From Dehalococcoidia bacterium (lineage in GTDB: Bacteria > Chloroflexota > Dehalococcoidia > DSTF01 > RBG-16-68-14), in NCBI GenBank assembly GCA_040882355.1, contig JBBEBM010000059.1:1-64000 (forward strand): DNA of 64,000 nt. The letters are read 5' to 3'. Positions 16,928-40,218 of this stretch are shown piece after piece (position 1 is the stretch's first letter; every line of letters begins with the position of its first letter). The notes below the pieces were generated by a model, which was given only the letters and a program-made list of their open reading frames with translations, was not told the origin of the DNA and ran no database searches. The position numbers and the translations under genes are program-made.

Positions 16928-19459
16928 CTAACGCCTGGATGACCCGCCCATGACGTCCTCGATGAAGGCTTCGATCGCTTGATAGACCTCCTCTGCGAAT
17001 AGCGCGCCCGCGCTGCCTTCGGTGATCAGCAACCTGCTAGCAGTGATCTGGTCGTGGAGCAGGTTCGCCGCTTCGACCGGGATATAAGTGTTATCCGGAT
17101 CGTGGACGATGAGTGTGGGGACGCCAACGCGTCCGAGGACCGATCGGGCGTCCGCTGCGGCGAAGGCGCCCAGGATCTTCGACCAGACCGGCTGCGGCAC
17201 GCGGCGCAGCACTTCCGCGATCGCCCGCGCCTCGTCAGGGTCGTGTCTGGTGCCGGCGAGCTGCGACGCCGCCCGCTCGCGGTCGAGGGCGTCGATGCGG
17301 AGGAAGGGTTCGAGGGCCTGGGGGTTGATGCCGAAGGCGAAGTCGCTTGAGCTGACCAGCTTGGGCGTCGTGCCTACGAGCACGAGCCCGGCCACGCGTT
17401 CCGGATACTGGGCGGCGAAGGTGATGGCAAGCGGGCCTCCGTCACTGGCGCCCCACACTACCGCTTGATCCGCGCCGGCAGCGTCGAGGACGGCTCGTAT
17501 GTCCTCGACGCTGCCGGTCAGGCTGTAACCTCGTTCCGGGGCGTCGGAGGAGCCAACGCCCCGCCTGTCGTAGAGCGCGACGCGGCAGCGCCTGCTCATG
17601 CGTTCCCAGGCCGCGGCAACGTTGCGCTGGCGGAAGGCGACCGCCGGGCAGTTGGTCAGACCCACCGCCATGAGGTACGGTCCGGTCGATCCCAGCACCT
17701 CGTAGGCCAGCTTCACCTCGCCGCTCTCGGCATAGCGGAGCGATTGTTGATGCAGGTGGAGCCTTCGCGCTTCCGTGTGGTCGCTGTAGAGCGATTCGCG
17801 GAGGAGGCGCTGGCGGAACCCGTATCGGCCCGCGGCTCCGGGTATCTCCGATAGGACTTGGACGCGGACCGCCTCCTCCATGAGCTCCAGCGCCTCGGTA
17901 TGCGTCGACCCTGAGGCTCGCTCCAGCGTCTCGAGATCGAACTCGCGGCCGAGGACGGCGGCGACCGCGAGGAGCCGCGCGCACTGGCCTGACAGCGCCG
18001 ACAGCCGGACGCGCATGACCTCTCGCACGCTCTCTGGCACCGCTATCTGGTCCTCCGCGAGGTCCGTGGAAAGGCGGCCATCCCGCTGGTTGAGAGCGCC
18101 CAGATCCGCGAGGTCGCGTAGAAGCTCGATGATGAAGAAGGGATTCCCTTCGGTCTGCTGGTGGACTACGCTCACCAGCGAGCGACTCGCCTCCTGCGCT
18201 GCCCAGGAGCTGATCAGCGCGCGCACTTCCGCCTCGTCAAGCCTGCCAAGTGTGAGCCGTTCGACGACATGGTCCCGGCGCAGGTCCGCGAGCACGTCCG
18301 GCAGCATTCCAGAGCGAAGGTCTGGTTCGCGACAGGTCACGAGCACGAGCATCGGAAGAGGCTCGGGGGCGAGGAGCAGCCGGCGCAGCAGGAGCAGGGT
18401 CTCTTTGGCGGCCCAGTGGAGGTCGTCCAGTACGAGCAGGCATGGGCTGTCCCCGCAGATCGCTGCGATCAGGCCGGACACGCCGGCGAACACCTGCTGC
18501 GCGTCGCCGCCCGCAGTAGGCGGCCGCGCTGTCGTCGACTCGGGCAGGCGGCCGGTTAGCTCAGAGATAAGCCGGCCCAGCTCCTCGTCACCCGCGCGGG
18601 CCAGCGCCTGCAGCCGGTTCGCCGGGCAGGCCGAGACGTAGGATCCGAGTGCCTGGAGCAGAGGTTCCCGGTCGTCGAGGGGCCGCTCATGGCACCGGGC
18701 GTACAGGACGGCGGCGCCGCGGTCGTGTTGGCGTCGCGCGAACTCCGCGGCGAGGCGGGTCTTGCCGATGCCGTCGTCGCCGGTGAGTGCGAGGAGACTG
18801 CGGCGGCCTGCCCGCGCCAGTTCCCACGCGTCCCCGAGCCGGTCGAGCTCCCGCTCGCGGCCGACGAAGCGGATCCAGGTCGCACGATCGAGCGGCGCCG
18901 GGAGGGGTGGCCGCGCGGCGTCACGCTCGACCGCGGGCTGCCAGGCTACCTCGCAGGCGGCGACCGGCTCGGCGAGGCCCTTGAGCGAGAGCGGGCCGAG
19001 CGCGCGGTACGCGTGGCCTCCGCGCGCGCCGACCAGCGCTCGCACCAGCTCAGAGGCCAGGATCTGCCCGCCCTCCGCGCTGTCGCACAATCGCCGCGCG
19101 ATGACGGGAGGCTTCCCGAAGTAGTCTTCCTCGTCCCGGATCGGGTCGCCGACGTGGAGGCCGATCCGCACGTGGAGACGCTGGTCTTCCGGCTGCTCCT
19201 CGTTGTGGCGAAAGACGGCCTGCTGCATCGCAACGGCGCAACCGACGGCGTCGACCGCGCCGGAGAAGACTGCCATTACGCCATCGCCCATCGTCTTGAC
19301 CTCGTGGCCGCTGGTCGCGGCCATCGCCTTCCGGAGCAGCCGGAAGTGTGTGCGGCGCAACTGCTCGTACTGATCGTCGCCCAGCCGGTCGAGCAGGGTG
19401 GTAGAGCCGACCAGATCGGTGAAGAGGAAGGTGACTGTACCGCCCGGCCGCTCAGTCAT
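16928..19459 (-). CDS. class III nucleotide cyclase - AAA/STAND-like NTPase - alpha/beta hydrolase fusion
   Basis: FTDLVGST, KTMGDG; FVGREREL, GDDGIGKT, LDDLHWA, GNPFF; YDRRGVGSSD, WGASDGG. Confidence 0.88.
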   Translation of the reverse strand: MTERPGGTVTFLFTDLVGSTTLLDRLGDDQYEQLRRTHFRLLRKAMAATSGHEVKTMGDGVMAVFSGAVDAVGCAVAMQQAVFRHNEEQPEDQRLHVRIGLHVGDPIRDEEDYFGKPPVIARRLCDSAEGGQILASELVRALVGARGGHAYRALGPLSLKGLAEPVAACEVAWQPAVERDAARPPLPAPLDRATWIRFVGRERELDRLGDAWELARAGRRSLLALTGDDGIGKTRLAAEFARRQHDRGAAVLYARCHERPLDDREPLLQALGSYVSACPANRLQALARAGDEELGRLISELTGRLPESTTARPPTAGGDAQQVFAGVSGLIAAICGDSPCLLVLDDLHWAAKETLLLLRRLLLAPEPLPMLVLVTCREPDLRSGMLPDVLADLRRDHVVERLTLGRLDEAEVRALISSWAAQEASRSLVSVVHQQTEGNPFFIIELLRDLADLGALNQRDGRLSTDLAEDQIAVPESVREVMRVRLSALSGQCARLLAVAAVLGREFDLETLERASGSTHTEALELMEEAVRVQVLSEIPGAAGRYGFRQRLLRESLYSDHTEARRLHLHQQSLRYAESGEVKLAYEVLGSTGPYLMAVGLTNCPAVAFRQRNVAAAWERMSRRCRVALYDRRGVGSSDAPERGYSLTGSVEDIRAVLDAAGADQAVVWGASDGGPLAITFAAQYPERVAGLVLVGTTPKLVSSSDFAFGINPQALEPFLRIDALDRERAASQLAGTRHDPDEARAIAEVLRRVPQPVWSKILGAFAAADARSVLGRVGVPTLIVHDPDNTYIPVEAANLLHDQITASRLLITEGSAGALFAEEVYQAIEAFIEDVMGGSSRR

Positions 19460-25993: not shown

Positions 25994-26774
25994 GGACGAT
26001 CCGAACGACACCCTGCTGGAAGCGAGAGCGCTGGAGCGCTTCGGCATCAAGCAGATCCACGCGGTGGAGACCGCCGAGCAGGCGCTTGACGTGCTAGCCA
26101 AGGAGCCGCGCGACATTGTCCTCGTCGACTACAACCTGCCGGGCATGGACGGCCTGACCCTGCTGGAACGAATCCGAGAGCTACAACCCAATACGCGGTT
26201 GGTTGTGGTGACGGGTGTGCGAGACGAGCACCTAGTGGTTTCCGCCATGAAGGCCGGCGCGGTGGACTTCCTGTGCAAGGACGACCTGCTCACGTCCGGT
26301 ATCATCCGTTCGTTGCAGGCACTCCTGCGGGCGCGCGACGCGGAGAAGGAGGAGCGGCTGGCCGCTCCCGAAAGCAGCCACGTGCTGGAGAGCGCGATCA
26401 CCAACCTGGACTGGTTGCTGGAGTCGTTCTCTGGAGACGCCACCTTCTCAGGCAGGCTGACGGGTGGGCGGTACAACGACGATCTCTGGACCGGCGCTCT
26501 AGAGGCGCTCCTTCGATACGTTGATGAGGCGTTTCGCGTGTATCCGGACACGCCGAGGGCAGCGGAGAACCAGCTCATTCGGATGCTGGTTGGGCGAGGC
26601 TCCGCGCCGCTTGAGGTGCTGGTGCTCTATGGCGCGGCCCTGCGCTCCCTGCTCGCGGCGGGAGTCACGCCCCCCATGAGCCCGGGCGTCTGCCTGATCC
26701 GTCTGCTTGCCCGGCTCATGGAACAGTACCAGACCGAGCTTTCACTGGAGGCGGTAGCGCGACTGGAATCTTAG
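25944..26774 (+). CDS. response regulator with unrecognised helical C-terminal domain
   Basis: VLIVEDD, LVDYNLPGMDG, GAVDFLCK, followed by an unrecognised C-terminal half. Confidence 0.85.
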   Translation: MVLRPLHPGATTVLIVEDDPNDTLLEARALERFGIKQIHAVETAEQALDVLAKEPRDIVLVDYNLPGMDGLTLLERIRELQPNTRLVVVTGVRDEHLVVSAMKAGAVDFLCKDDLLTSGIIRSLQALLRARDAEKEERLAAPESSHVLESAITNLDWLLESFSGDATFSGRLTGGRYNDDLWTGALEALLRYVDEAFRVYPDTPRAAENQLIRMLVGRGSAPLEVLVLYGAALRSLLAAGVTPPMSPGVCLIRLLARLMEQYQTELSLEAVARLES

Positions 26775-27415
26775 CTGAGGCGCTGCTGGAACTCCGCCAG
26801 GCGCTTCTCCAGCTCGCGCTGGCGGACGGAGACCGTGAAGTCGCCGCGGGTGCGTTCCAGGATGCCCCGGACGGCGTCGGTCGTGCGACGGAGGCCGCCG
26901 GTCATGGCGTCCGGGTAGTCCAGGGTGACGAGCACGCTGTAGACGTCGTCCATGGCGGTGAGGACGTTTTCGCAGTGCTCGACGTCGCCGGCCCGCAGCT
27001 TGTCCAGCAGGTGACGGCGCAGCTCGCCGACGGCCTCACCCAGGCCGTTCAGGTAGGCGGGCAGCTCGACGCCCAGGGCTTCGGGCGCAGGCAGCGCGCG
27101 GCCCGCGATGATGGCCTGGGTGGCGCAGGCCTCCACATATTCCTTCTGCGCATCGTGGACGAAGCCGGCGTGGTAGATGTCCGGGTGGCCGCCCAAACTC
27201 TCCTTCGCCTGGCGCAGCAGCCCGCCGGCGCGCGCGATGAGCTCGTCGGCCTCCGCGAACCCCTCGCGGTGGACGGCGCGAATGGCGTTCGCGGAGTGGC
27301 GCAGCGCCTCGCGGCAGAGGGGGAGCGCCCGCTCGCGCGCCACGTGCTTATCGGCGTAGAGCGCCCGAACGCCGTCCATGATCGGTTCGAGCTGCTCTCC
27401 GACGGTGTCCATCAC
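26771..27415 (-). CDS. translin/TRAX-like protein
   Basis: AIRAVHR, AQKEYVEA, YLNGLGEAVGELRR, GLRRTTDAVRGILERTR. Confidence 0.8.
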   Translation of the reverse strand: MMDTVGEQLEPIMDGVRALYADKHVARERALPLCREALRHSANAIRAVHREGFAEADELIARAGGLLRQAKESLGGHPDIYHAGFVHDAQKEYVEACATQAIIAGRALPAPEALGVELPAYLNGLGEAVGELRRHLLDKLRAGDVEHCENVLTAMDDVYSVLVTLDYPDAMTGGLRRTTDAVRGILERTRGDFTVSVRQRELEKRLAEFQQRLS

Positions 27416-28053
27416 TCGTACTTCACCCAGTCCTGGTAGAGGATGACCGCGCTTGAGGGCTCGATCAGGTCGACGGCGGTTGGGAAGCTGGCGGCCGTCT
27501 CGCCGGGGATCACCCAGCGGCCGTCCACGAGCTGGAAGTCGATGCCGCGGACCGCGCGCCCGACGACGTTTTCGCGGTTGTGGACCGCCGTGATGAGCGC
27601 GGTGTGGACATCGCCGCCGTCGGTGGGCGACTCGGCCGGTCGGGCCGTGGCATAGAGACGCACAGAGCCCGGGCCGTAGTCGTCCACTTCGTCCGGTAGC
27701 GCTCCCTGGAAGAAGAGCCCGATTTCGTTGATCAGGTCGTCTTCGGTGGTGGTGTTGCCGGGCGCGCCGTAGTTGACGATGTAGACCTGGTTGAACTCGA
27801 AGCCCTCCTCCAGGCAGATCGGGTCGGCGGGGGCGTCCGGGCCGGTGCTCTCGGCGACCTCGTCCGCGGTGCAGGTGTGCGGCGTGCCCGCCACGCGGCC
27901 GGCGAAGAAGTCGACGTCGCCGTCTTCGGCGGCCTGAGCGACTTTCGCGGCGAACTCGGCGAAGTCCTCCGGGTCGCCGTCATCGCTGCTGCAGGCGGAT
28001 AGCCCGACCATCAACACGATGCCCAGCCCGGCGAGAACCAACCAGCGAGACAT
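27412..28053 (-). CDS. putative lipoprotein
   Basis: MSRWLVLAGLGIVLMVGLSAC lipobox; acidic mature region. Confidence 0.75.
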   Translation of the reverse strand: MSRWLVLAGLGIVLMVGLSACSSDDGDPEDFAEFAAKVAQAAEDGDVDFFAGRVAGTPHTCTADEVAESTGPDAPADPICLEEGFEFNQVYIVNYGAPGNTTTEDDLINEIGLFFQGALPDEVDDYGPGSVRLYATARPAESPTDGGDVHTALITAVHNRENVVGRAVRGIDFQLVDGRWVIPGETAASFPTAVDLIEPSSAVILYQDWVKYE

Positions 28054-28057
28054 GCTG

Positions 28058-28396
28058 CTACAACTCATCGACGGGCTTCGGGAACTCGCCATCACGGGCG
28101 GCGTCAATCATCTCGCGGGCTTCGCCGGGAAGGTCCATGCCGTACTCGTCGAACTTGCGCTCGACCCAGCGCCCGATCTGACGGGGGTCCTTGTACTCGT
28201 CCAGGCTCCGGGGTTCGGCGCCGTACTCCTCCAGCACGCGCTGCCCCGACTTGTGGTAGGCGAAGCGGGAGAGAGCGCGTGAGAGCTTCTTGCTGCCGCA
28301 GTGGCCGCACGCCGGCTTCGTAGCAGCGCCCATCGACTTCACGAAGACGCTGGTGAGACGGCCGCACGCGCCGCAGGTGTACTCGTAGATGGGCAT
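28058..28396 (-). CDS. FmdB family zinc-ribbon protein
   Basis: MPIYEYTCGACG...CGHCGS, DPRQIGRW. Confidence 0.9.
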   Translation of the reverse strand: MPIYEYTCGACGRLTSVFVKSMGAATKPACGHCGSKKLSRALSRFAYHKSGQRVLEEYGAEPRSLDEYKDPRQIGRWVERKFDEYGMDLPGEAREMIDAARDGEFPKPVDEL

Positions 28397-28397
28397 G

Positions 28398-28751
28398 TTA
28401 GCCGTCCGGCGACCAGTCGTCGCCGTCCTCCTCGGGGAAGCCGCCGGCCTCCATCTGGTCGATCGCCTCGTCGAAGTCGGAGCCCAGGTCGTCGCCCATC
28501 TCGTCCTTCATGCGACGGGCCCAGCGCGCGACGCTGCGCGGGTCGTTCTCGTCCACGTCGGCGAGCATGCGGTCGTCGAAGTCGTCGGACGAACCGCCGG
28601 CGGAGCGCACGACGGTGACGCGCGACATGAGGCGGCTGAGGCGCTTGCTGCCGCAGTGCTCGCACTTGGCCTGGACCGCGGTGCTCATGCTGCGCACGAA
28701 GACGCTGGTGCGCTTGCCGCACTTGCCGCAGCGGTACTCGTAGATCGGCAT
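28398..28751 (-). CDS. FmdB family zinc-ribbon protein
   Basis: MPIYEYRCGKCG...CEHCGS, DPRSVARW; TATACT -10 just upstream. Confidence 0.9.
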   Translation of the reverse strand: MPIYEYRCGKCGKRTSVFVRSMSTAVQAKCEHCGSKRLSRLMSRVTVVRSAGGSSDDFDDRMLADVDENDPRSVARWARRMKDEMGDDLGSDFDEAIDQMEAGGFPEEDGDDWSPDG

Positions 28752-28822
28752 GGCGAGCACAGTATACCGAGCGTCCGCGAGGGTGCGGCAAGCGGGGTTC
28801 GGCATGGTAGCTCGAAGCTGTC

Positions 28823-29191
28823 TCACTCGCCCTCGACCGCGCTCTCGATGTGCTGGACGGAGAGGACGCGGCCGCTCGTGTCGAGGTCGATGGCGATGAG
28901 GTCGATGCGGCGGCCTTCGGGCAGGTCCGGGTGCTGGACGCCGAACGCCTCGGCGACGAGCAGCAGGCGCTGCGCCTTGCGGGCGTCGATCGCTTCGAGG
29001 GCGGAGCCCATGGCGTTGCCACGGCGCGTCTTCACCTCGACGAAGGCGACGGTCTCGCCCTGCTGCGCGACGATGTCGACCTCGCCTTCGCGCACACGGA
29101 ACTTGGTGGCGAGGATGCGGTACCCCTTCGCCTCCAGGTGCGCCTTGGCGACGCGCTCACCGAAGTCACCGAGATCGCGGCGTGCGGCCAT
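28823..29191 (-). CDS. yraN: YraN family (UPF0102) endonuclease-like protein, intact copy
   Basis: LGDFGERVA..HL..KGYRIL..FR..EGEVDIVA...FVEVKTR, RIDLIAI; TGTATGAT -10 six nt before ATG. Confidence 0.92.
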   Translation of the reverse strand: MAARRDLGDFGERVAKAHLEAKGYRILATKFRVREGEVDIVAQQGETVAFVEVKTRRGNAMGSALEAIDARKAQRLLLVAEAFGVQHPDLPEGRRIDLIAIDLDTSGRVLSVQHIESAVEGE

Positions 29192-29286
29192 GGGCGCATC
29201 ATACACGGCAGCCCCGCCGGTAGCCTGCCGCGCGTCGGTCGGTCCGGCCTTTGCCGGAGGATCGCCGCAACCGCTGGTGGTGAAGC

Positions 29287-29763
29287 TCAGCGGCTGTGCC
29301 GGCGGAGTGCCTCTGTGACCGCAGGCGGAACATAGTCCTCGACGCTGCCTCCGTGCCGCGCAACATCCTTTATCAGGCTCGACGAGATGAAGCTCCACTG
29401 GGGATTCGTTGCGATGAAGAATGTGTCGACGTCTGGGGCGAGGCTGGAATTCATCTGCGCTTGCTGGAGTTCATACTCAAGGTCAGAGGCCGCTCTCAAG
29501 CCTTTTACGATTACTCGGATGCCGTGCTTCTTGGCGAGATCGACCGTCAGGCCAGCGTGTGGCACGACCTCGACGTTGCCTACATGCGATAGTACACCCT
29601 TCAGGAGAGAGACACGTTCATCAATGCTAAACAGTGGCGCCTTCGCGGCGTTCGTCACCACGGCGATCACAACCGACTCAAAGTGGCGACTGGCTCGCTC
29701 GACTATGTCGATGTGGCCGTTGGTCGGCGGATCGAACGAACCAGGATAGATGGCCCTTGTCAT
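29287..29763 (-). CDS. coaD: phosphopantetheine adenylyltransferase
   Basis: YPGSFDPPTNGHIDI, KGLRAASDLEYE.Q.A.MN, FISSSLIK. Confidence 0.95.
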   Translation of the reverse strand: MTRAIYPGSFDPPTNGHIDIVERASRHFESVVIAVVTNAAKAPLFSIDERVSLLKGVLSHVGNVEVVPHAGLTVDLAKKHGIRVIVKGLRAASDLEYELQQAQMNSSLAPDVDTFFIATNPQWSFISSSLIKDVARHGGSVEDYVPPAVTEALRRHSR

Positions 29764-29963
29764 CGGAAAGCCTCCCTAACCCCCGAAGGAGCGATGGGCA
29801 GGAAATGAATGCCAGCCCATCGCCGCGGCTCCTCGGCTTCTGATCATACCGCCGGATACCCTGGCCACATCGCCACCACCGCCCGGGCCACCGGCGCGGG
29901 AGCCGTTCATAGGCGATCTTGCACCCCAGCGGAGTCATCGTAGGTCTGTCCGGCCGCGCATCG

Positions 29964-30017
29964 GTGCGCCTTCGCGACGCGCTCGCCGAAATCACCGAGG
30001 GCGCGGCGGGAGGTCAT
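29964..30017 (-). repeat. yraN 5' remnant, copy 1
   Basis: Translates MTSRRALGDFGERVAKAH, then diverges; starts 3 nt after the GNAT stop codon. Confidence 0.92.
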
Positions 30018-30020
30018 GGG

Positions 30021-30530
30021 TTACGTGCCGAGCTCCTTGCGAAGACTGATCTCGATCAACCCGGACGTATGTCTCGACCCGGCCGAGCTGCCGTCTGGCG
30101 CGTATCCTGCACTTTCGTAGAGCTGCCTTGCGGCGGTAGCTGTGCTGGTCACGGACAGTCGTACAATGGTGCCGCCGCAAGCGGCGATCCATCCCTCGAT
30201 GTCGCTCAGGAGCCTCCTGGCGATCCCGCGGCGGCGAGCTTCCGGCGCCACAAACATCTCAACCCCGTGGAAGAGCTCGCGCTGTGATCCGTCACGGATC
30301 GCCGTGAAGAGGCCTACCGACTCGTCACCGCGCATCGCTAACAGCGTCATCGCGTCGTCTCCCGCCGCGCTGCGCGCCGCCCGCCCGGCCCATGTCTCAT
30401 CAGGAAAGGCGGCTTCCCGTTCGTAGGTCGAGCCGAATGAAGCGGGGTCGGTAACAAGCGCGCGCAGCCGGATCCGCTTCAGGAGCGCACCGTCCGAATC
30501 CTCCACTCGCCGAACAACGATGTCGCTCAC
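30021..30530 (-). CDS. GNAT family N-acetyltransferase
   Basis: RLRALVTDPASFGST, MFVAPEARRRGIA, ARQLYESAGY; start moved to GTG 30530. Confidence 0.88.
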   Translation of the reverse strand: MSDIVVRRVEDSDGALLKRIRLRALVTDPASFGSTYEREAAFPDETWAGRAARSAAGDDAMTLLAMRGDESVGLFTAIRDGSQRELFHGVEMFVAPEARRRGIARRLLSDIEGWIAACGGTIVRLSVTSTATAARQLYESAGYAPDGSSAGSRHTSGLIEISLRKELGT

Positions 30531-30589
30531 GACGTTCAGTCTAGCCTGCCGTTCTGTTCGGCCGCGGTGCGTTCGCCGTCTCGTTGCAC

Positions 30590-31042
30590 CTAGGAGCCTC
30601 GGTCTTGGCGCCAGCGCGCGATCCAGGCGGTGTGCTGCGCCTCGTGGCTGCTGACGAGACCGGCCTCGCCGTAGAGCGAGGTGTCGAGGCCGCGGTCGGT
30701 CGCCGAGGCGATGGCGTCGAGCAGGCGTTGCCGGGACGTCGCCAGCTCCCACCGTACCTGCTCGAGCGAGAGGTCGCGGCGCTCGTCGTACACGATCTCG
30801 TTGAGCGCCTCGTCCTGCTCGGGGCGCATGCGCCAGGCGGAGTCGTAGCCGGCGGAGATGCGTTCGACCTCGCTCGCGCGGATGTCGTCCCAGAAGGCGA
30901 TGTGCCCCAGGTGGTCTTTGACCGACCAGCCATCGACCGAGCGCTCCGTCAGCAGCTCGTCGCTGAGGCCGTCGATGGTGGCTAGCAACGCCTCGCGGGT
31001 CTCGCGGTAGTGTTGCAGCAGGGCGTCACGGTCCTCGGTCAT
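30590..31042 (-). CDS. DinB/ClbS/DfsB-like four-helix bundle protein
   Basis: GWSVKDHLGHIAFWD, HEAQHTAWI; AGGAG RBS. Confidence 0.85.
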   Translation of the reverse strand: MTEDRDALLQHYRETREALLATIDGLSDELLTERSVDGWSVKDHLGHIAFWDDIRASEVERISAGYDSAWRMRPEQDEALNEIVYDERRDLSLEQVRWELATSRQRLLDAIASATDRGLDTSLYGEAGLVSSHEAQHTAWIARWRQDRGS

Positions 31043-31058
31043 GGTTGTCTCCTAGACG

Positions 31059-31139
31059 GTGCGCCTTCGCGACGCGCTCGCCGAAGTCACCGAGGTCGCG
31101 GCGGTCGGTCATGGGCGCATGATACACGCATAGCAGCCG
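31059..31139 (-). repeat. yraN 5' remnant, copy 2, including its leaderless promoter
   Basis: Translates MTDRRDLGDFGERVAKAH; upstream GTGTATCATGCGCCC-ATG matches GTGTATGATGCGCCC-ATG of intact yraN. Confidence 0.93.
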
Positions 31140-31206
31140 TGGTAGGCTGCGCCCTGCGGCGTGCTATACTCCGCACAACGTTGATACGGAAGAAGGAGGT
31201 CCAACC

Positions 31207-31251
31207 ATGAGAACAACAACGCTCCTGCGCCCCGAGGTCCGAGCGGCCTAG
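31207..31251 (+). CDS. putative 14-aa leader peptide MRTTTLLRPEVRAA
   Basis: AAGGAGGT RBS, TGCTATACT extended -10 upstream, overlapping hairpin; precedes the nucleotidyltransferase gene. Confidence 0.6.
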   Translation: MRTTTLLRPEVRAA

Positions 31252-31368
31252 CCAAGGCAACCTCCGCTCGACATCGGGTGCGCTCCTGCCCGACTGTCGT
31301 TTCGTATCGCGCGCCATCCCACGCCGGCTCCGGCCGTGGACGCGGCGCCCCACCACAAGGAGCATCTC

Positions 31369-32019
31369 TTGTCTACCTCTGTCTCACATCAACCGACGAC
31401 GCCCGTGCCGGAACCGGTCGCCCGCGTCGCCGACATCATGTCCTCCTACGGCCCCACGTGGTGCCTGTGCGGCGGCTGGGCCGTCGATGCCTGGCTCGGC
31501 CGCCTGACTCGCGACCACGGTGACGTCGACTTCGCCATCTTTCAAGACGACCTGAGCGCCTTCTTCGATCACATGGCCGGCTGGCACCTCATCGCCCACG
31601 ACCCGAACGTCCCGGACAACACTTCCGAACCCTGGGACGGGCGCTCCCTTGATCTCCCCGCCCACATCCACGCTCGCTCGTCGGAAGCTGGCGACCGGCT
31701 CTCGGACCGCCTGGACGACCCCGCGCAGCAGGGCTTCGAGCTGGATATCCAGATCAACGAGCACTCCGGCGGGGACTGGATCATGAGCCGCGAGCCCCGC
31801 ATCACCATACCGCTACGCCAATGTGTCCGGCGGTCCGGCTGGGGTCTGCCCACACTGGCCCCGGAAGCCGTCCTCCTCTACAAGGCCCAGGAACCGCGCC
31901 GCCGCGACAAGCTGGACTTCCTCGCCCTTCTCCCTCAGCTCACCGATGGGCAGCGCGACTGGCTCCGGAGCGCGATCTCACTCCTCGACCACCCGTGGCT
32001 GACTCATTTCGGCGAATAG
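31369..32019 (+). CDS. ANT(2'')/Lnu-like nucleotidyltransferase
   Basis: WCLCGGWAVDAWLGRLTRDHGDVD, LAPEAVLLYKA..PRRRDKLDF, HPW; TTG start after AAGGAG. Confidence 0.82.
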   Translation: MSTSVSHQPTTPVPEPVARVADIMSSYGPTWCLCGGWAVDAWLGRLTRDHGDVDFAIFQDDLSAFFDHMAGWHLIAHDPNVPDNTSEPWDGRSLDLPAHIHARSSEAGDRLSDRLDDPAQQGFELDIQINEHSGGDWIMSREPRITIPLRQCVRRSGWGLPTLAPEAVLLYKAQEPRRRDKLDFLALLPQLTDGQRDWLRSAISLLDHPWLTHFGE

Positions 32020-32043
32020 AGCGAGTCGCACTCCATGCCTACA

Positions 32044-32200
32044 AGCGTTTCATGTCAGTACGTTTTGCAAAATCGCCTTTTTCGCCGGAACACGGCGATC
32101 CTCTCTTCCTGCGCCGAGTCTGGCAACGCGGCCCGACGGCGCGGGTTCCCACGACGTCTTGTCGAGCATGAGGGTAAGGCCGCGTGGCGAGAGCGCCAAG
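32044..32200. repeat. 157-bp direct repeat, copy A
   Basis: AGCGTTTCATGTCAGTACGTTTTGCAAAATCGCCTTTTTCGCCGGA... shared with 32758-32914. Confidence 0.9.
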
Positions 32201-32277
32201 CGGTGGGTGGCTCGCCCGACGCGCGGGTCGGAGTTACCGAGGACGTGGGCGGGAGGTCGACTCGCTATCCGCCGCGG

Positions 32278-32646
32278 TCACGGCGTGTACAGCTCGATCT
32301 CGTAGCCGTCGAGGTCGGTGAAGTAGATGAACGGCTGGCCCTCGCCGTGGGCGCCGGTGCGGAGCACGGTACCGCCGGCGGCCTCGATCTCCGCGACCGC
32401 GGCGGCGATATCGACGCCCGATTCGAGCGCGAATCCGAAGTGGACGACGCCGCCAGGGGCGCCGGCCGGGCCATCGGGCGACTGGTGCAGGGTGATCAGG
32501 TCGCCGCCGCCGGGCACGCTGACGAAGATGAGGTCGCCCTCGCGGAACTGCTCTTCGACACCCAGCAGGCGCTGCCAGAACGCGAGCGAGCGCTCGCCGT
32601 CGCGGACGACGAACTGGATGTGGCGCAGGCCCTTGGTGCGGATCAT
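32278..32646 (-). CDS. VOC/glyoxalase family protein
   Basis: GLRHIQFVVRDGERSLAFW..LLG, HFGF, YFTDLDGYEIEL; AGGAGG RBS. Confidence 0.9.
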   Translation of the reverse strand: MIRTKGLRHIQFVVRDGERSLAFWQRLLGVEEQFREGDLIFVSVPGGGDLITLHQSPDGPAGAPGGVVHFGFALESGVDIAAAVAEIEAAGGTVLRTGAHGEGQPFIYFTDLDGYEIELYTP

Positions 32647-32757
32647 GCGGCGGTCCTCCTGTCGCGCGAGTTCGCGAGGCTCATGATACCTCGATCGCCG
32701 GTTTCGGACGGGGCCGCGAGGCCGGGTCAGGCTCGACAAGGCCTCCTCCGGCGGGTG

Positions 32758-32914
32758 AGCGTTTCATGTCAGTACGTTTTGCAAAATCGCCTTTTTCGCC
32801 GGAGTGCGGCGGTCCTCCCTTCCTGCGCCGAGTCTGCGAGCGCGGCCCCGAAGCGTGCCTTCCCACGACGGGTTGTGTAGCACGAGGGTAAGGCCGCGCG
32901 GCGAGATCGCCAAG
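32758..32914. repeat. 157-bp direct repeat, copy B
   Basis: Same length and same first ~45 nt as copy A, more diverged centre, shared end GAGGGTAAGGCCGCG.GGCGAGA.CGCCAAG. Confidence 0.9.
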
Positions 32915-32928
32915 GCGCAGGTGGCGCA

Positions 32929-32980
32929 TAGGTGCGCAGCGGCGTCGCGCTTGTCGAAGTCAGCGAGGCGCTGGCGGGGG
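32929..32980 (-). repeat. yraN 5' remnant, copy 3 (decayed)
   Basis: Translates RQRLADFDKRDAAAHL versus RRDLGDFGERVAKAHL. Confidence 0.75.
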
Positions 32981-33039
32981 CGGCTTGAGCGTGTGTCGCA
33001 TCGGAGCGTGGTAGCGGCTGTGGTACCATCTCGGCTGCG

Positions 33040-33555
33040 ATGCGACGCGCTCTTGTGGTACTGGCAGCTGGCGCTCTGTTGCTGGCCGGCGCAGGCTTTG
33101 CCATCTTCATCCTCTGGATCAGCGGTGCTCTCTGGGCGGGCAGCGAGGAGGTCCGGCAGTCCTTGTGTGACGATTTAGGCGACTGGCATGCCACGCAGTC
33201 TGCATTCTTGAAACGGGTGAACGAACCCCGCAGTCTTGAGGAACCTCGCCTTCAAACCACTCAAGACCTGTTTGTAGACTCCGCCCGGTTAGCGCTGCCC
33301 CCAGCTGATGGAGAGCAGGAAGAGGAGCTGCGAGCGAACCTCCGAGAGGCCGTGCGTCTGGAGGAGCAGTGGCTGTCTGAACTGAGCCTCTATGAAGGCC
33401 TGACCAGTACAGGATCGTCGGCTTCTAGTGAGCAGCGCGTGGCATCGTACAGGCGAGCCGAGGAACTCCGGGTGTCGCTCAATGACGCGCTGCGGGAGGC
33501 CAATGCCCAACTCGAAGGGTCATGCGGCCTCGCGCCGCTGCCTCTTTACGAGTAA
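33040..33555 (+). CDS. hypothetical membrane-anchored protein
   Basis: N-terminal hydrophobic helix, helical body with two Cys; atypical codon usage. Confidence 0.65.
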   Translation: MRRALVVLAAGALLLAGAGFAIFILWISGALWAGSEEVRQSLCDDLGDWHATQSAFLKRVNEPRSLEEPRLQTTQDLFVDSARLALPPADGEQEEELRANLREAVRLEEQWLSELSLYEGLTSTGSSASSEQRVASYRRAEELRVSLNDALREANAQLEGSCGLAPLPLYE

Positions 33556-33567
33556 GCCTACCGCCCA

Positions 33568-34134
33568 TTAGTCCCCTGCGCTTATCACGTTCTCGATCCG
33601 CCGGTTCAGGTCGTACCGGCGCTCGCTCGATTCATCGAATTGCTTCCTAGTCGCGTCATATGCCTCGCGCAGCACTTTCTCGTCGCGCGGCAGCTGGGCC
33701 GTGATTCCCAGGGCGAATAGCTGGCGGCTCGAATTGTAGTAGTCGTCCGCGAGCTTCTGGGCCAGTTCCGCGACCTGCTTGTCCGCCACCTGCATCGACG
33801 TCTCAAGGATTCGGCTGCTCAGATTGACGTCCAGGAAGTGCTGCGCGGCGGCGACCATGCGATCCTGCGCTGCGCGATCCGTGCCGCCTGAGAGCGCAAG
33901 GTTCATCCTCCTCACTGCGGCGTGGAACTCGCCGAAGGCAGCGAGTAGTTCGCCATAGCGTTCTCGTCGCCACGCCGTCAACCGCTCCCTGCGCTGGTGG
34001 TCGCCCTGCGCCGTCGTCGTCTTGTCCAGAGTCTCGCGTTGCGTCCGGTTCTGTTCGTGGACCGCGTAGAAGCCGATCAGGGCAACGACGACTCCACTGA
34101 CCAACGGCACCAGCGTCCTTAGCACCTCATCCAT
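33568..34134 (-). CDS. hypothetical protein with N-terminal TM
   Basis: AGGAGGG RBS; TM followed by helical region. Confidence 0.7.
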   Translation of the reverse strand: MDEVLRTLVPLVSGVVVALIGFYAVHEQNRTQRETLDKTTTAQGDHQRRERLTAWRRERYGELLAAFGEFHAAVRRMNLALSGGTDRAAQDRMVAAAQHFLDVNLSSRILETSMQVADKQVAELAQKLADDYYNSSRQLFALGITAQLPRDEKVLREAYDATRKQFDESSERRYDLNRRIENVISAGD

Positions 34135-34215
34135 GACATGTCCCTCCTAAGAGGAGTGCTATCGCGCCGGCCGAGGCGCGAGGAGGAATCACCTTAGGCA
34201 CCCTCCGATCGCGCA

Positions 34216-34272
34216 TAGGTGCGCCTTCGCGACACGTTCACTCAAGTCATCCAGGGCGCGGCGGGCGTTCAC
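34216..34272 (-). repeat. yraN 5' remnant, copy 4
   Basis: GTG start overlaps the upstream gene stop (GTGA); translates MNARRALDDLSERVAKAHL. Confidence 0.88.
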
Positions 34273-35273
34273 GTCACAATCAGCTTCGTCCCGGAACTGG
34301 CGATCGTTCGCCCGGCTGCGGACGCGTCCGCAAGGGTTGTGACGCAATCTCCGTCAACGAGGAGGACCAGGTCAATGTTGGCTGGGAGATTGAGCGTTGG
34401 AAACACCCGCTTCGCGTCCTCGGCTACTGCGTTGGAATAGCCTATTCGTTCCAAAATCACGACATGATTCTCCGCCCATCGTTCTCGAAACTTGACAGCC
34501 GCCTTGTCCAGCGCTTCCTGTAGCTCTTCACGCAATCCTGGCTCGGCCCAGCCGAAATGCATAGCGGAGACGTGTACACCGTCTCTGGTGCTCGTCGCAA
34601 ATCGGGTAAGCTTCCACTCCTCTTCCCACTCGACGGCAGCAGGCTGGCCTTTTTCGCTTCGGTGGCAGGCTTCAATTAGGCTGGTCTGGAAATCGCGGCG
34701 GGCAGCGTCTGTGATGAAGGAGTGGTGCCAGCGATTCGCGGCGTCGCCATCGTTGAAGTAATAAATGCCAGTAACAGAGTTTCCGATTTCACGCACAACC
34801 TCGTCTGTCCGATGAGCATGCCAGCAGTTGACGAATGGTCCGTCGGACTTGGAGATGCACGTCATCTCGCCTGATCGTGAAATGCGGATCGCGCCCTCTC
34901 CGCCGGGGCGAATGGTCTTGCCCACCCTCTCAAGTTCCCTCTTGACCCTCGGGATGAGCGGGGGCGGCATCGGCAGTCGAAACCCAGGGCAGGGCCAAAG
35001 TGAGTAGCTCCCGCCGTAGGAGGGCACGAGCCGCCGGAACAGCGACTCATTGCTCGTCGAATACGCGCGGGTCGCAGCATCGCCCACAAGTCGCTTCACC
35101 TCGATGGCCGCTGTCGTGACGCCGTTCGTGACCATGCACTCCGGCGTTGGCTTCCAAGGGTACCTCTCCGCCAGGGTGCTGCCGTCCGGCGGCTGCCACT
35201 TCGCGCCGATTACGGCATCAAGGGTTGGCAACACGAGCCGAATGACACGCTCTTCCTGGGCGGTGAGAGGCAT
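34269..35273 (-). CDS. hypothetical protein, possible PD-(D/E)XK nuclease fold
   Basis: TPEC...AIEVKRL motif; lower GC; TATAAT -10 eight nt before ATG 35273. Confidence 0.6.
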   Translation of the reverse strand: MPLTAQEERVIRLVLPTLDAVIGAKWQPPDGSTLAERYPWKPTPECMVTNGVTTAAIEVKRLVGDAATRAYSTSNESLFRRLVPSYGGSYSLWPCPGFRLPMPPPLIPRVKRELERVGKTIRPGGEGAIRISRSGEMTCISKSDGPFVNCWHAHRTDEVVREIGNSVTGIYYFNDGDAANRWHHSFITDAARRDFQTSLIEACHRSEKGQPAAVEWEEEWKLTRFATSTRDGVHVSAMHFGWAEPGLREELQEALDKAAVKFRERWAENHVVILERIGYSNAVAEDAKRVFPTLNLPANIDLVLLVDGDCVTTLADASAAGRTIASSGTKLIVT

Positions 35274-35340
35274 GGCTAGCATTATATGGGCTAGGACGGG
35301 CGTTCTACAAGGTGGCATGGAAACTGACGCGGAAAGGGCC

Positions 35341-35482
35341 GCCAATCGCCGAGGTCACCGAAGGCCCCGTCCCTCACCCGCCGGCCAGCGCGAGCTGCTC
35401 GCCCTCGATGCGGGCGCGGGCGGGGGCGAAGGAGCGGCGGTGGATGGCGCAGGGGGCCGTGCTCGGCGAGGGCGCGCTGGTG
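35341..35482 (-). pseudogene. duplicated rnhB 3' end followed by a heavily decayed yraN start
   Basis: HQRALAEHGP(+1 frameshift)CAIHRRSFAPARARIEGEQLALAGG* matches the RnhB C-terminus; then TTCGGTGACCTCGGCGA (FGDLGD versus LGDFGE). Confidence 0.88.
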
Positions 35483-35528
35483 GGCGACTGAGGCGCGACG
35501 CCTGAATCCTCGCACTGCGCGTCGCCGC

Positions 35529-36875
35529 CTATTCCCCGTCCCGCCAGCGCACTTCGTAGAGGCGCACCGGATCCTCGAAGCCTCGGAGGGCCACCGAGCC
35601 GCGCTCCGCGAACAGGAAGCCCTTGCCCGTCACGAGCTGGCGCACGACGTCCGTCACGACGATCTCGCCCTCGCCTGCGCTCTCCTTCGACCGCGCCGCC
35701 AGGATCACCGACGCGCCGAACAGGTCGTCGCCCTCCGTAATCGGCTCCCCTGCGTTGATGCCCGCCCTGATGCGGACTTGCTCACCGCAGACCTCTTGCG
35801 ACGAGAACGCGCGCTGCAGTGCGATCGCGCACTCGACCGCCTTCTGCGCCGACGTGAACGACGTCATGAAGCTGTCACCGATCGTCTTGATCTCCGAGCC
35901 GCCGTGCGCGCGCAGCGCGTCGCGCGTGATGCGCTCGTGCTCGCGGAGAACGTCGCGGCCCTTGGCGTCGCCAAGGCGCTCCATCATCGCCGTGTGCGCG
36001 ACGATGTCGGTGAAGAGGATCGTCCGAAAGACGCCGGTGTCCAGCTCGGGCGCGGAGAGCGGCCGGCCAGCGCCGGCGCGCGTTGTGATGAAGTCATGGA
36101 TCACGGCAATGCCCGCGGCGTTGGGGTAAGCAAGGCTAAACTCGCCTGGAATGGCCGCCATCTGGGCGCCGACGACGGCGGCGGCCAGGCTCCTCGCGGC
36201 GGCGGCACTCGCGTCGTTTCCCAACTGATGTAGGATCAGTGTGGGGACGCGGACTTGAGGCGCCAGCGCAAGCGGCTCATGAAGCGCCAAGACGTCATAC
36301 GCCGCACGGAACGTTTGGTTGGAATGAGAGGCGCGGACCAGCGCTGCGAGAGGCGTTGCGTCCGGCGAGTCCCATCCCGCATTCAGCCGCGAAAGGAGGT
36401 TGGTATACACTTCCCACTCGTCATCGAGGAGGGGCAAGACCGATGCCGTGACGCGGAACCAGGACGTATCGCGTGTCACGCCGAGCCGGCCGCTGAGCAC
36501 GAGCTGGGTGACGCGGTCCGGGCGCCGCACGGCGTACGCCAGCGGCAGGTCGCCAGCCGGGGCGCGCCAGAACAGAGCGACCTGATCGAGACCGAGCGAG
36601 TCGAGAACGGCCTCAAGGTCACGAGTGCCGGCCTCGACCGTGAAGTCGATCACGTCGTGTGGGGACATGCCCATACCACGAGGGTCGTAACGCACGACGG
36701 TTGCCCGTTCCGCCAGCCGCTCGTAGAATGCCCGCCTTCCGGGCAGGCTCCACTCGAACTGCAGGTGACTTGCGATCAGGCTGGGCGGGATTACCAGTGG
36801 CGGCCCTTCGCCGAACACCGTGTAGGCGATCTGGACGCCGTCGTCGGTCTTCGCGTACTGGATGCGCGGCTCCAT
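35529..36875 (-). CDS. alpha/beta hydrolase-like + class III adenylate/guanylate cyclase (LipJ-like architecture)
   Basis: IQYAKTDDGVQIAY, RYDPRGMGMS; FTDIVAHT, KTIGDSFM, LRGFEDPVRLY. Confidence 0.9.
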   Translation of the reverse strand: MEPRIQYAKTDDGVQIAYTVFGEGPPLVIPPSLIASHLQFEWSLPGRRAFYERLAERATVVRYDPRGMGMSPHDVIDFTVEAGTRDLEAVLDSLGLDQVALFWRAPAGDLPLAYAVRRPDRVTQLVLSGRLGVTRDTSWFRVTASVLPLLDDEWEVYTNLLSRLNAGWDSPDATPLAALVRASHSNQTFRAAYDVLALHEPLALAPQVRVPTLILHQLGNDASAAAARSLAAAVVGAQMAAIPGEFSLAYPNAAGIAVIHDFITTRAGAGRPLSAPELDTGVFRTILFTDIVAHTAMMERLGDAKGRDVLREHERITRDALRAHGGSEIKTIGDSFMTSFTSAQKAVECAIALQRAFSSQEVCGEQVRIRAGINAGEPITEGDDLFGASVILAARSKESAGEGEIVVTDVVRQLVTGKGFLFAERGSVALRGFEDPVRLYEVRWRDGE

Positions 36876-36948
36876 GGCGACCCTATCTTACATCAGCGCG
36901 TGTCGGCCATGGGCGGCGCCCAGTAGGACGCGCCGAAGGCACCGCCCA

Positions 36949-37605
36949 TCACCCAACCGCCAGCGCGAGCTGTTCGCCCTCGATACGTGCGCGGACGGGG
37001 GCGAAGGAGCGGCGGTGGATGGCGCAGGGGCCGTGCTGCTGCAGGGCGCGCTGGTGGTCGGGCGTGCAGTAGCCGCGATTGTGGTCGAAGCCGTAGGGCG
37101 GGTAGGTCTCGTGGAACCCGTCCATGAGCCGGTCGCGCTCCACCTTGGCGATGATCGAGGCGGCGGCGATCGATGCGCTGAGCGCGTCGCCGTGGATGAT
37201 CGACCGCTGCGGGCGGCGGTCGCGCGGCAGGGTCATCGCGTCGAGCAGCAGGAGGTCGGGCGCGCAGGGCAGGGCGTCGAGGGCGCGGCGCATGGCGCGT
37301 CGCGTCGCTTCCATGAGGCCGGCGGTATCGATCTCGTCGCTGCTGGCGACGCCGGAGGCGACGGCGGCGCTGTCGCGCAGGCGGACGGCGAGGCGCTCGC
37401 GCTGGGGTGCGGTGAGCAGCTTGCAGTCGCGCAGGTCCGACCACCAGTCGACGGCGGCCTGCGGGTCGAGGACGGCGGCGCCCGCGACGACGGGGCCGGC
37501 CATGGGGCCGCGCCCGGCCTCGTCCACGCCGGCGACGTGTCGATGGCCCGCGCGCCAGGCGCGGATCTCCTCGCTCAGCGTTGGGATGGCGCGAAACAGC
37601 CCCAC
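36949..37605 (-). CDS. rnhB: ribonuclease HII
   Basis: GVDEAGRGPMAGPVV, SIAAASIIAKVERD, HNRGY, IHRRSF; TTGACC-17-TAGCAT promoter upstream. Confidence 0.96.
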   Translation of the reverse strand: MGLFRAIPTLSEEIRAWRAGHRHVAGVDEAGRGPMAGPVVAGAAVLDPQAAVDWWSDLRDCKLLTAPQRERLAVRLRDSAAVASGVASSDEIDTAGLMEATRRAMRRALDALPCAPDLLLLDAMTLPRDRRPQRSIIHGDALSASIAAASIIAKVERDRLMDGFHETYPPYGFDHNRGYCTPDHQRALQQHGPCAIHRRSFAPVRARIEGEQLALAVG

Positions 37606-37871
37606 AAGCGACTCTCAGGGCGATGCTACGCCGCCCAGGCGGAACGGTCAACGTGCTGGTCCCTTCGCTGCGCTCAAGGGCAGGCGCTGGTTGCTTGTCG
37701 CTGGTCGCTGGTACCGCCTGGGGAGGGGGCCTCGCACGAGGTGCTTCGAGCACGCGGTGGTTAATAGGGCGGCGGACGGGCGCATAACGGGCATCGCGGT
37801 GGCGGGCAGATTCGCGCTGAGATGGTATGATTCGGCTACGAGGTCGTTTCTATCTACGCTGGAGGTTTACG

Positions 37872-38060
37872 ATGCCCATCGTTCGAGTGGAGATGTGGCC
37901 GGGCCGGACGCAGGCCCAGAAGCGGGAGCTCGCCCGCGCGATCACGGAGGCTGTCTGCAACATCGCCCATACGACGCCGGAGGCGACGATCGTCGTCTTC
38001 CAGGACGTGGCGAAGGACGATTGGGCGCAGGCGGGCAGGCTGGCTTCGGAGGACGAGTGA
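37872..38060 (+). CDS. 4-oxalocrotonate tautomerase family protein
   Basis: MPIVRVEMWPGRTQAQKRELARAITEA, N-terminal Pro; GGAGG RBS. Confidence 0.92.
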   Translation: MPIVRVEMWPGRTQAQKRELARAITEAVCNIAHTTPEATIVVFQDVAKDDWAQAGRLASEDE

Positions 38061-38226
38061 ACCGTGCCCTGTCGCAGGTCGATACTATCGCCGGAGGCCT
38101 CAGAATCGAAGGCCGGGGCTCGTTCACAAGCGCCTTCCGCTCTGATATAATGAGTCCGATGCTCAGATTTGGCTTCCCTGCCTGGTCGAAGCTCGAGCGA
38201 CGGCACAGAAAGCAGGTGCGCATAGC

Positions 38227-40218
<1,992 letters not shown>

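Follow-up and report, generated by a model that had tools for sequence, protein, structure and literature searches.

A putative integron-like cassette array anchored in the 5' end of yraN in uncultured Dehalococcoidia

Why do rnhB and yraN, two genes that lie close together in most relatives, stand far apart in one family of Dehalococcoidia, with copies of the yraN start scattered between them? This question is raised by the window, a stretch of 64,000 nucleotides (nt) from a Dehalococcoidia bacterium (assembly GCA_040882355.1, contig JBBEBM010000059.1, positions 1 to 64,000), whose genome (G000) comprises 3.33 Mb on 82 contigs and is 94% complete. In the window, rnhB, encoding ribonuclease HII (36949..37605, minus strand; Pfam PF01351, E 6.5e-33), is the upstream anchor of a 7.76-kb gap that ends at an intact yraN gene of the UPF0102 family (28823..29191, minus strand; 122 amino acids (aa); PF02021, E 2e-24). 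Among 20 genomes outside the family, the two genes are less than 110 nt apart in 16 and 0.9–1.2 kb apart in three, and rnhB is not nearby in one. An earlier reading of this DNA (the original prediction) had put the separation at about 7.7 kb, in agreement with the measured value and the Pfam assignment of both genes, and had proposed that small DNA units insert repeatedly at one site in yraN, each bringing a new yraN start and leaving the old one upstream as a stub. The finding is real, recurrent and well beyond chance, and the interval is best read as an integron-like array of cassettes that has its anchor in the yraN 5' end.

Between rnhB and yraN, the first 57 nt of yraN (codons 1–19) occur in four clear copies, each with the orientation of the gene itself; the rest of the genome has none. 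A sequence-only profile built from 32 yraN starts and stubs of relatives (R1) detects stub 1 (29963..30019, minus strand; E 1.5e-17), whose ATG follows the stop codon of an acetyltransferase gene by 3 nt, stub 2 (31058..31136, minus strand, including a TATCAT box 7 nt before the ATG; E 8e-18), stub 3 (32930..32980, minus strand; E 1.2e-9) and stub 4 (34217..34272, minus strand; E 2.6e-11; 41.2 bits by nhmmer). The four stubs claimed originally are recovered in the same way by a repeat search, in which family D1 consists of six 47-nt copies including the yraN start (29963-30009, 31058-31104, 32931-32977 and 34218-34264, and a 66% copy at 32205-32251), and by BLAST of the 91-nt yraN start against the whole genome, which finds 31058-31128 (E 1e-21), 29963-30020 (E 3e-13) and 34217-34267 (E 9e-7), the next best match anywhere on the 82 contigs having an E-value of only 0.02. 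Stub 2 is 90% identical to the start region of yraN itself over 71 nt, including the part upstream of the ATG (repeat D2). All four stubs stop at GCGCACC(T/G), as had been predicted, and the next 24 nt agree with yraN at only 5–9 of 24 positions, compared with 18–23 of 24 in 14 intact genes.

The fainter traces of the original prediction are not significant by themselves and gain support from their context. A decayed stub behind the glyoxalase gene (32232..32259, minus strand; nhmmer E 0.56) is syntenic with the yraN start of a relative (G004), and another trace (35346-35363, minus strand; nhmmer E 3.2) follows a second copy of the 3' end of rnhB. This copy (35358..35486, minus strand) contains the last 110 nt or so of rnhB and 16 nt of downstream sequence; it is about 130 nt long, is 82–90% identical to 36933-37060 (repeats D4, 98 nt, 90%, and D20, 34 nt, 82%) and shows 92% identity over 26 aa by tblastn. 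A third remnant, weak and read by eye, lies directly after the rnhB stop codon (36915..36948, minus strand); it is not significant alone, and the yraN start lies 2–105 nt behind rnhB in relatives. From yraN outwards the nhmmer scores are 57.8, 59.0, 7.6, 31.3, 41.2 and 5.1 bits, so that the proposed increase of decay with distance from yraN, and with it an order by age, holds only loosely.

Across 16 sources the arrays comprise 30 stubs along with 14 intact starts; every one has the orientation of yraN, and the gene itself is intact in all 14 loci that reach it. The junction is nearly constant: 23 of the 30 stubs extend to profile position 58–60, and identity with yraN is lost within 0–2 nt in 20 of them and within 6–7 nt in three, in agreement with the earlier claim that one fixed site in yraN is reused. 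Directly past the breakpoint, most cassettes open with a conserved block of about 60–85 nt, the head element, as exemplified by ATGCGCGCCAGGACAGACCTACGGTGATCCCGCTACGGTGGACGATCC at L083:1984 (array loci, genomes and contigs are denoted by L, G and C, respectively). With the head profile, 22 copies score E<0.01, of which 12 were absent from the seed alignment, and a tally of coordinates places a head directly behind 18 of the 30 stubs. In four further cases no more than 12–18 nt of stub stand before the head, and these always end in ...GCGCACCT. In the window, head elements of family A follow stub 1 (29899..29961, minus strand; nhmmer E 9.9e-10 in the whole-genome scan) and stub 4 (34144..34216, minus strand; nhmmer E 1.2e-5 to 2e-4). 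The whole-genome nhmmer scan of G000 finds the head only in the array, where a 15-nt core spanning the junction is also unique in the genome. A strict head pattern occurs in 24 stretches of the GTDB species collection, five of which, on four contigs, belong to arrays of the window's family; the remaining 19 are in unrelated phyla and have no stub.

The end of the stub and the start of the head together form a short palindrome, GCGCA-CCTA-TGCGC, with a 4-nt spacer. Head variants open with ATGC or with a yraN-like GGAG, and the head contains two similar blocks ending in GATCC. Two junctions of apparently different type (L005/L009 and L002/L005) are, by eye, either in register with the head or part of a cassette that is headed in the window. 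The head shows no detectable relationship to yraN past codon 19, its alignment scores being equal to the shuffle mean, and the idea of a decayed continuation of the gene was rejected. No conserved fold is detected in the head by RNAalifold over 21 units (-0.81 kcal/mol, five pairs, no compensatory changes), nor is there any Rfam match in 27000-39000 at E<=1. Of the earlier statement that attC sites are missing, the absence of an attC-like fold therefore stands, and a conserved element between cassettes is found in the place of attC. A typical cassette runs from the head element through usually one accessory gene, often with its own -10 box, to a copy of yraN codons 1–19, in some cases with a TATCAT-type -10 box ahead of it.

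Stubs are present in eight of the 16 genomes of the window's family (R1, E<1e-6), with five in G004, four in G000, two each in G005, G007, G009 and G011, and one each in G006 and G008. Five other family genomes contain only the gene's own start, yraN lying within about 1 kb of a contig end in G002, G003 and G012, and three have no strong match. Among 93 genomes of the order, including the unpublished G060 with a single match, at least two matches at E<=1e-5 occur only in those eight genomes and in G032 of a sister family. Five further arrays (L062, L064, L069, L073 and L083) come from JGI metagenome contigs searched with a pattern. As expected from the original prediction, cargo and order vary among relatives while the breakpoint stays the same. 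The rnhB–yraN gap does not survive as the target, since in G006, G007, G009 and G011 a gene encoding an HD-domain protein, instead of rnhB, lies upstream of the array; because the upstream neighbour varies, the constant element is yraN codon 19. In the sister family, about 0.9–1.0 kb of genes lie between rnhB and yraN in L032 (G026) and L030 (G023) with no detectable stub or head, the insert of G026 consisting of a glyoxalase gene, 78% identical to that of the window, and a PNPOx-like gene. These inserts are either very old cassettes or the result of a different entry route.

Complete cassettes are 137–2671 nt long, several of the longer ones being subdivided by heads without stubs, and they carry more than 20 cargo families, mostly as a single gene per unit. 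In relatives the cargo includes PNPOx-like, DinB, methyltransferase, catechol dioxygenase, HAD, SET, NUDIX, DUF429, AAA_18, GNAT, glyoxalase and cyclase genes. The arrays draw on a common pool of cassettes: six cassettes of the window recur in other genomes at other positions, namely the nucleotidyltransferase cassette in G007, that of a 188-aa protein in G006 and G011, that of a 358-aa protein in G005, the glyoxalase cassette in G004 and G026, the GNAT cassette in G008, G032 and L069, and the DinB cassette in G009. DinB precedes glyoxalase in G004 and comes after it in the window. The shortest units, 'empty' cassettes of 137–157 nt between stubs in L001 (G007, 17023-17260) and L007 (G004, 2900-3054), hold only short hairpin-forming repeats, for example of the ccgacggtt...aaccgtcgg type.

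One cassette has passed between families. The GNAT cassettes of G008 and G032, which belong to different families, are 87.4% identical over 514 nt, whereas the flanking rnhB and yraN genes are only 68.7% and 69.8% identical, pointing to transfer between families into the same site. The first 23 nt of G032 yraN resemble the window's family and the last 20 nt or so of the 57-nt segment resemble its own family, although 57 nt are too short to decide. In the metagenome-assembled genome (MAG) G005 the locus lies on two contigs. Both have the rnhB end and the same first stub (identical at 55 of 57 positions), and their flanks are about 95% identical. After CACCT they continue into unrelated cassettes (17 of 40 positions identical), and the functional yraN genes behind these cassettes match at only 12 of 21 positions over nt 1-21, then at 35 of 36 from nt 22 on and at 94 of the following 99. 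Hence the suggestion that a cassette arrives with a new yraN start is borne out in G005, where the first 21 nt differ in spite of the nearly identical flanks. In addition, the last 130 nt or so of a GNAT gene, 93% identical to that of L069, lie behind the catechol dioxygenase gene in the yraN-adjacent unit of L004 (G009, 6750-6880), indicating that cargo is also replaced by events inside cassettes.

A TATCAT/TATGAT-type -10 box lies 6–7 nt before the start codon in seven of 14 intact yraN genes and in four of 28 stubs, compared with a shuffle rate of 0.016, as counted by a purpose-written script; a canonical -35 element is absent, and a simple sigma-70 scan finds no sigma-70 site at the units. 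In the window, the yraN region including a TATGAT box 7 nt before the ATG spans 28823..29215 (minus strand). The excess of boxes over the shuffle rate suggests that many cassettes come with a promoter from which yraN would be transcribed as a leaderless message.

The cargo of the window, read from rnhB towards yraN, begins with a 448-aa alpha/beta-hydrolase and adenylate/guanylate cyclase (35529..36875, minus strand; PF00211, PF00561), paralogues of which flank a stub in G004 (L010). It is followed by a 358-aa protein without a Pfam family (34269..35345, minus strand), 69% identical over 795 nt to the sole cassette of contig C200 of G005, and by a 188-aa protein (33568-34134, minus strand), likewise without a Pfam family and 69–71% identical to cassettes of G006 and G011. 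A further protein without a Pfam family, of 171 aa, is encoded on the plus strand (33040-33555). The glyoxalase/VOC-family gene (32278..32739, minus strand; PF00903) matches the cassette nearest to yraN in G004 with 83% identity over 442 nt. The nucleotidyltransferase gene, with a weakly ANT(2'')-like N-terminus (31336..32019; PF10706, E 8e-7), is in the opposite orientation, on the plus strand, as is its homologue beside the stubs of G007 (74% identity over 646 nt). The DinB_2-family gene (30590..31042, minus strand; PF12867) is 82% identical to a DinB fragment in the array of G009, and its cassette starts without a head element. The gene of the GNAT acetyltransferase (30021..30530, minus strand; Pfam) has a TAGACT box 7 nt before its GTG start codon; the homologous cassettes of G008, G032 and L069 open with a stub and a head, and the unit upstream of the window gene is lost or decayed. 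The unit next to yraN encodes an extra, coaD-like phosphopantetheine adenylyltransferase (29287..29763, minus strand; PF01467; G+C about 0.58), a second coaD, 44% identical, being located on the same contig beyond the window. The G+C content drops to 0.575–0.62 over 29400-29800, the coaD-like cassette, and to 0.56–0.60 over 34200-35000, the 358-aa gene, in surroundings of 0.65–0.72.

A dispersed repeat of about 170 nt, D3, occurs twice in the interval (32758..32925, starting 4 nt past the breakpoint of stub 3, and 32044..32211, both minus strand), each time at the head of a cassette and in the same orientation. It starts with GCCACC, ends with GAAACGC, has no Rfam match and is present in at least 14 near-full copies of 69–85% identity in the genome, on contigs C44, C70, C57, C50, C29, C13, C42 and others. 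Since one copy lies about 150 nt from a Y1 transposase gene on C50, D3 is probably a non-autonomous derivative of a Y1 (IS200/IS605-type) element. Its presence in the array, the head element, the duplication of the rnhB 3' end and the inconstancy of rnhB as a neighbour were all missing from the original prediction. Directly downstream of yraN is a pair of Zn_ribbon_8 (FmdB-type) genes (28058-28396 and 28398-28826, minus strand) with a 58-nt repeat (D8) common to their 5' ends, and the same pair follows yraN on L069 and L073. An open reading frame (ORF) of 214 aa (26771-27415, minus strand), 1.4 kb downstream of yraN, weakly resembles the Translin family, with an E-value of 0.0012 that falls short of the Pfam cut-off.

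The window sequence is found in runs of sediment metagenomes. Across the junctions at stubs 1, 2 and 4, Logan contigs from four runs of one study continue with zero differences. In the separate assembly of the best-holding run, possibly that of the source sample, a single 2,892-nt contig covers yraN, stub 1 and stub 2, another contig crosses stub 4, and the depth is even (13.6–18.9) across the interval; two further runs from this study have contigs that span stub 1 and stub 4, again with zero differences. The Logan contigs break at the repeated parts, namely the D3 copies and the rnhB 3' copies. No stub-to-stub joint is found among the 15 joints listed, of 32 in the Logan contigs; most of the 15 have a shorter side of 20–37 nt and resemble other organisms or repeats.

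How would such an array be built? It is somewhat probable, in our judgement, that the cassettes are moved by a trans-acting, site-specific recombinase encoded outside the arrays. In a circular cassette, a copy of the yraN start would abut the head element at ...GCGCACCT|ATGCGCG..., and this junction would recombine with the same position in chromosomal yraN or in any unit of the array, resulting in insertion of the cassette. The previous yraN start would thereby become an upstream stub, and a new one, often with a promoter, would come from the cassette, so that yraN would stay intact. The head element with its two GATCC-ending blocks may serve as an arm bound by the recombinase or by an accessory protein. 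Circular intermediates, the point of crossover and the kind of enzyme are what we infer here from the arrangement of the units. Such insertion of circles would explain why yraN is always intact, why all stubs have one orientation, why the copy begins at the start codon or promoter and stops exactly at the junction, and why interior units may retain only 12–18 nt of stub.

Searches for the enzyme covered ten genome loci from nine genomes and five metagenome loci with 2 kb on each side, in scans of 16, 114, 119 and 39 array ORFs selected by length and third-position G+C. No autonomous member with an integrase at the same site is present in these ten genome and five metagenome loci, and the earlier statement that the window holds no integrase extends to the scanned ORFs of the other arrays. 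No PF00589 match is found on the window's contig, the five matches in G000 being two Xer-like genes, two genes beside tRNA genes and one fragment; five Y1_Tnp matches, two of them strong, also occur in G000. None of the 16 family genomes reaches the 265-bit cut-off of the integron integrase model TIGR02249, the best score being 91.7 bits. Xer/dif was rejected as well: a motif scan gives one dif-like candidate (contig C75) in four of 41 relatives, compared with five of 41 for a reversed-pattern control, and the core of the array unit has the wrong geometry. The array unit has no match in the viral, plasmid and phage collections IMG/VR, PLSDB and INPHARED. An ORF of about 471 aa carries a Recombinase domain (PF07508; C19:12336-12599), the resolvase catalytic domain being undetected in G000, and it looks like a core gene rather than the integrase of a mobile element because it is conserved across all five families of the order.

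Several observations weigh against a dedicated recombinase. No member of the integrase, resolvase or transposase families is present among the ORFs scanned in the arrays. Of the candidates sought elsewhere in the genome, as had been recommended, none is array-specific: the two non-Xer tyrosine recombinases on C17 and C38 lie next to tRNA genes, a position that points to tRNA targets, the resolvase match of G000 is a fragment of 150 aa, and the protein of about 471 aa is matched by same-size ORFs in 40 of 41 genomes from the order, array-bearing and array-less alike. Seven of the 30 stubs are cut earlier, at profile position 38–56, and only about three junctions are clearly independent (L001, L007:2842 and stub 2 of the window); because most junction types are diverged copies of one head family, a single founding event could account for much of the constancy of the breakpoint. 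Within a genome, the stubs are similar to the resident yraN, as gene conversion would give, and events that are not site-specific, the rnhB 3' duplication and the GNAT 3' fragment behind the dioxygenase gene, have occurred at the locus. Neither a circular junction nor an empty site was observed in the Logan contigs, which are unsuited to seeking either. In the main alternative, possible although less likely, no dedicated enzyme is involved: the units of about 140 nt (yraN start plus head) would act as portable homology by which RecA loops cassettes out and in, DNA of relatives, taken up for example by natural transformation, would enter through crossovers that fall within the units or the adjoining core genes, gene conversion would keep the stubs like the resident yraN, and the sharp breakpoint would be the edge of homology inherited from one founding junction. 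Consistent with RecA alone are the lack of any recombinase in the arrays or specific to array-bearing genomes, the genome- or genus-specific character of the stubs, the end of the cassette-specific part of G005 yraN near nt 21 rather than nt 57, the ATGC and GGAG openings of the head, as conversion tracts of differing length would give, the rnhB 3' duplication, which fits insertion by a single crossover, and the GNAT 3' fragment of G009, a homology-type event. Moreover, the cited part of a preprint reports YraN as a nuclease that resolves the transformation D-loop with ComM (bioRxiv 10.1101/2024.02.06.579203). However, homology alone leaves unexplained how over 20 unrelated genes, usually one per unit, ended up between the units, why the exact ...GCGCACCT|head junction is kept in units with 12–18 nt of stub, and why the head is conserved across genera and in a second family; besides, 57 nt is a short substrate for RecA. 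Repeated insertion of small units is partly supported, by the fixed codon-19 junction and the variable cargo; its site-specificity remains inferential beside the RecA explanation, and the rnhB duplication, the GNAT fusion and units without stubs also occur.

Other explanations fare less well. An immobile relic, inherited from the ancestor of the family and subject since then only to loss, decay and local rearrangement, would account for the many decayed units and for the identities of common cassettes between genera (69–83%), which are within the range of flanking genes; it is very unlikely in view of the variable order of cargo, the two alternative cassettes behind near-identical flanks in G005 and the GNAT cassette, which is 87% identical between families whose flanking genes are 69–70% identical. 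Still less probable are non-autonomous, single-strand transposons of the IS200/IS605 kind (PATE-like), inserted 3' of ...CACCT by a Y1 transposase encoded elsewhere, each cassette ending in the same target sequence. The Y1_Tnp genes of G000, the D3 repeat with one copy beside such a gene and two at array cassette heads, and a junction as expected of elements that insert 3' of a short constant sequence and duplicate no target apart from what they carry themselves agree with such transposons, whereas the lack of a conserved subterminal hairpin or covariation in the RNAalifold analysis and the confinement of the units to one locus, compared with the genome-wide D3 repeat, argue against them. That the array is an assembly or binning artefact, a chimera of the rnhB–yraN regions of several strains, is hardly credible: yraN lies at a contig end in several MAGs and G005 has the locus on two contigs, but single Logan contigs span yraN with stubs 1 and 2, and stub 4, at even depth, further runs bridge the same junctions, and the same architecture is seen in nine species-level genomes and five JGI contigs.

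Returning to a recombinase acting in trans, a more tentative and rather unlikely extension is that the arrays form a novel gene-capture platform, in which an enzyme of the core genome, instead of an integrase from a cassette or array, would recognise the unit of about 140 nt. Cassettes would then dock at the yraN start, accessory genes would be acquired in step with natural transformation, and the yraN promoter would be rewired at every capture. Candidates for such an enzyme are the Xer pair, the order-wide Recombinase-domain protein of about 471 aa and the ComM/YraN transformation machinery.

To our knowledge, the stacking of single-gene cassettes is well understood only in integrons, whose defining features are an integrase and folded attC sites. 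The yraN arrays resemble integrons and clusters of attC sites (CALINs) in that small, mostly single-gene and mostly co-oriented cassettes vary in content between relatives, in that a conserved element resembling a recombination site lies between the genes and the repeats within a genome are similar, and in a cargo of GNAT, glyoxalase, DinB and nucleotidyltransferase type. They differ from integrons in lacking an integron integrase in all 16 family genomes, in having neither a conserved hairpin, whereas attC folds, nor a GTTRRRY box in the sequences read, and in inserting inside a housekeeping gene whose start is replaced, with many cassettes carrying their own -10 box. The cited passages on CALINs describe them as likewise lacking a nearby integrase (PMC4889954, PMC11389934). 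The cited passages on the dif modules of Acinetobacter plasmids describe them as Xer-dependent, bounded by short conserved sites and shuffled between replicons (PMC6449649, PMC13141974). Like the yraN cassettes, such modules are small, carry accessory genes and encode no recombinase, and a host enzyme acts on them as one would act on the cassettes, whereas the yraN arrays are chromosomal and confined to one locus, and have no dif-like 11-6-11 (28-bp) site, the spacer of the core palindrome being 4 nt.

A parallel in the same bacterial class is provided by the ssrA islands of Dehalococcoides, which, in the cited passages, are built in tandem at one conserved gene and leave a direct repeat of the gene end (PMC3146451). 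Tandem build-up at a single-copy gene is also a feature of cis-mobilizable and SCC elements, and in both the ssrA islands and the yraN arrays the units are bounded by direct repeats of the end of the target gene, which is restored (30 stubs; 14 of 14 yraN genes intact). According to the same passages, some ssrA-type units have no recombination genes and are proposed to be mobilised by neighbours, and the islands are large, 16 of them carrying a six-gene integration module with the serine recombinase DsiB (PMC3146451). In contrast, the yraN cassettes are 0.14–2.7 kb long with no recombinase in any array, and the repeat is the 57-nt 5' end of a protein gene here and 20 nt of the 3' end of an RNA gene there. 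The SCC elements are tandem, site-specific elements of similar kind. Replacement of a 5' coding end is known from SXT/R391: by integrating within the 5' end of prfC, it provides this gene with a substitute coding start and a promoter; SXT is a conjugative element of about 100 kb with its own integrase, whereas the units of the yraN arrays are single genes without an integrase, and stacked. No prior description of these arrays was found in full-text literature searches, supplements aside.

The yraN arrays extend an integron-like modular logic to uncultured Dehalococcoidia with a different, unfolded site: docking takes place inside a housekeeping gene that is repaired at each insertion, and no array contains an integrase. 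If RecA alone is responsible, nature would offer here a clear example of cassettes organised by portable homology. Discovery of an enzyme would make the arrays a second, independent cassette system and give a handle on the movement of accessory, detoxification-type genes in a class that is hard to cultivate. Since the docking gene is reported, in the part of the preprint cited above, to encode a nuclease of natural transformation, a link between DNA uptake and cassette storage becomes testable.

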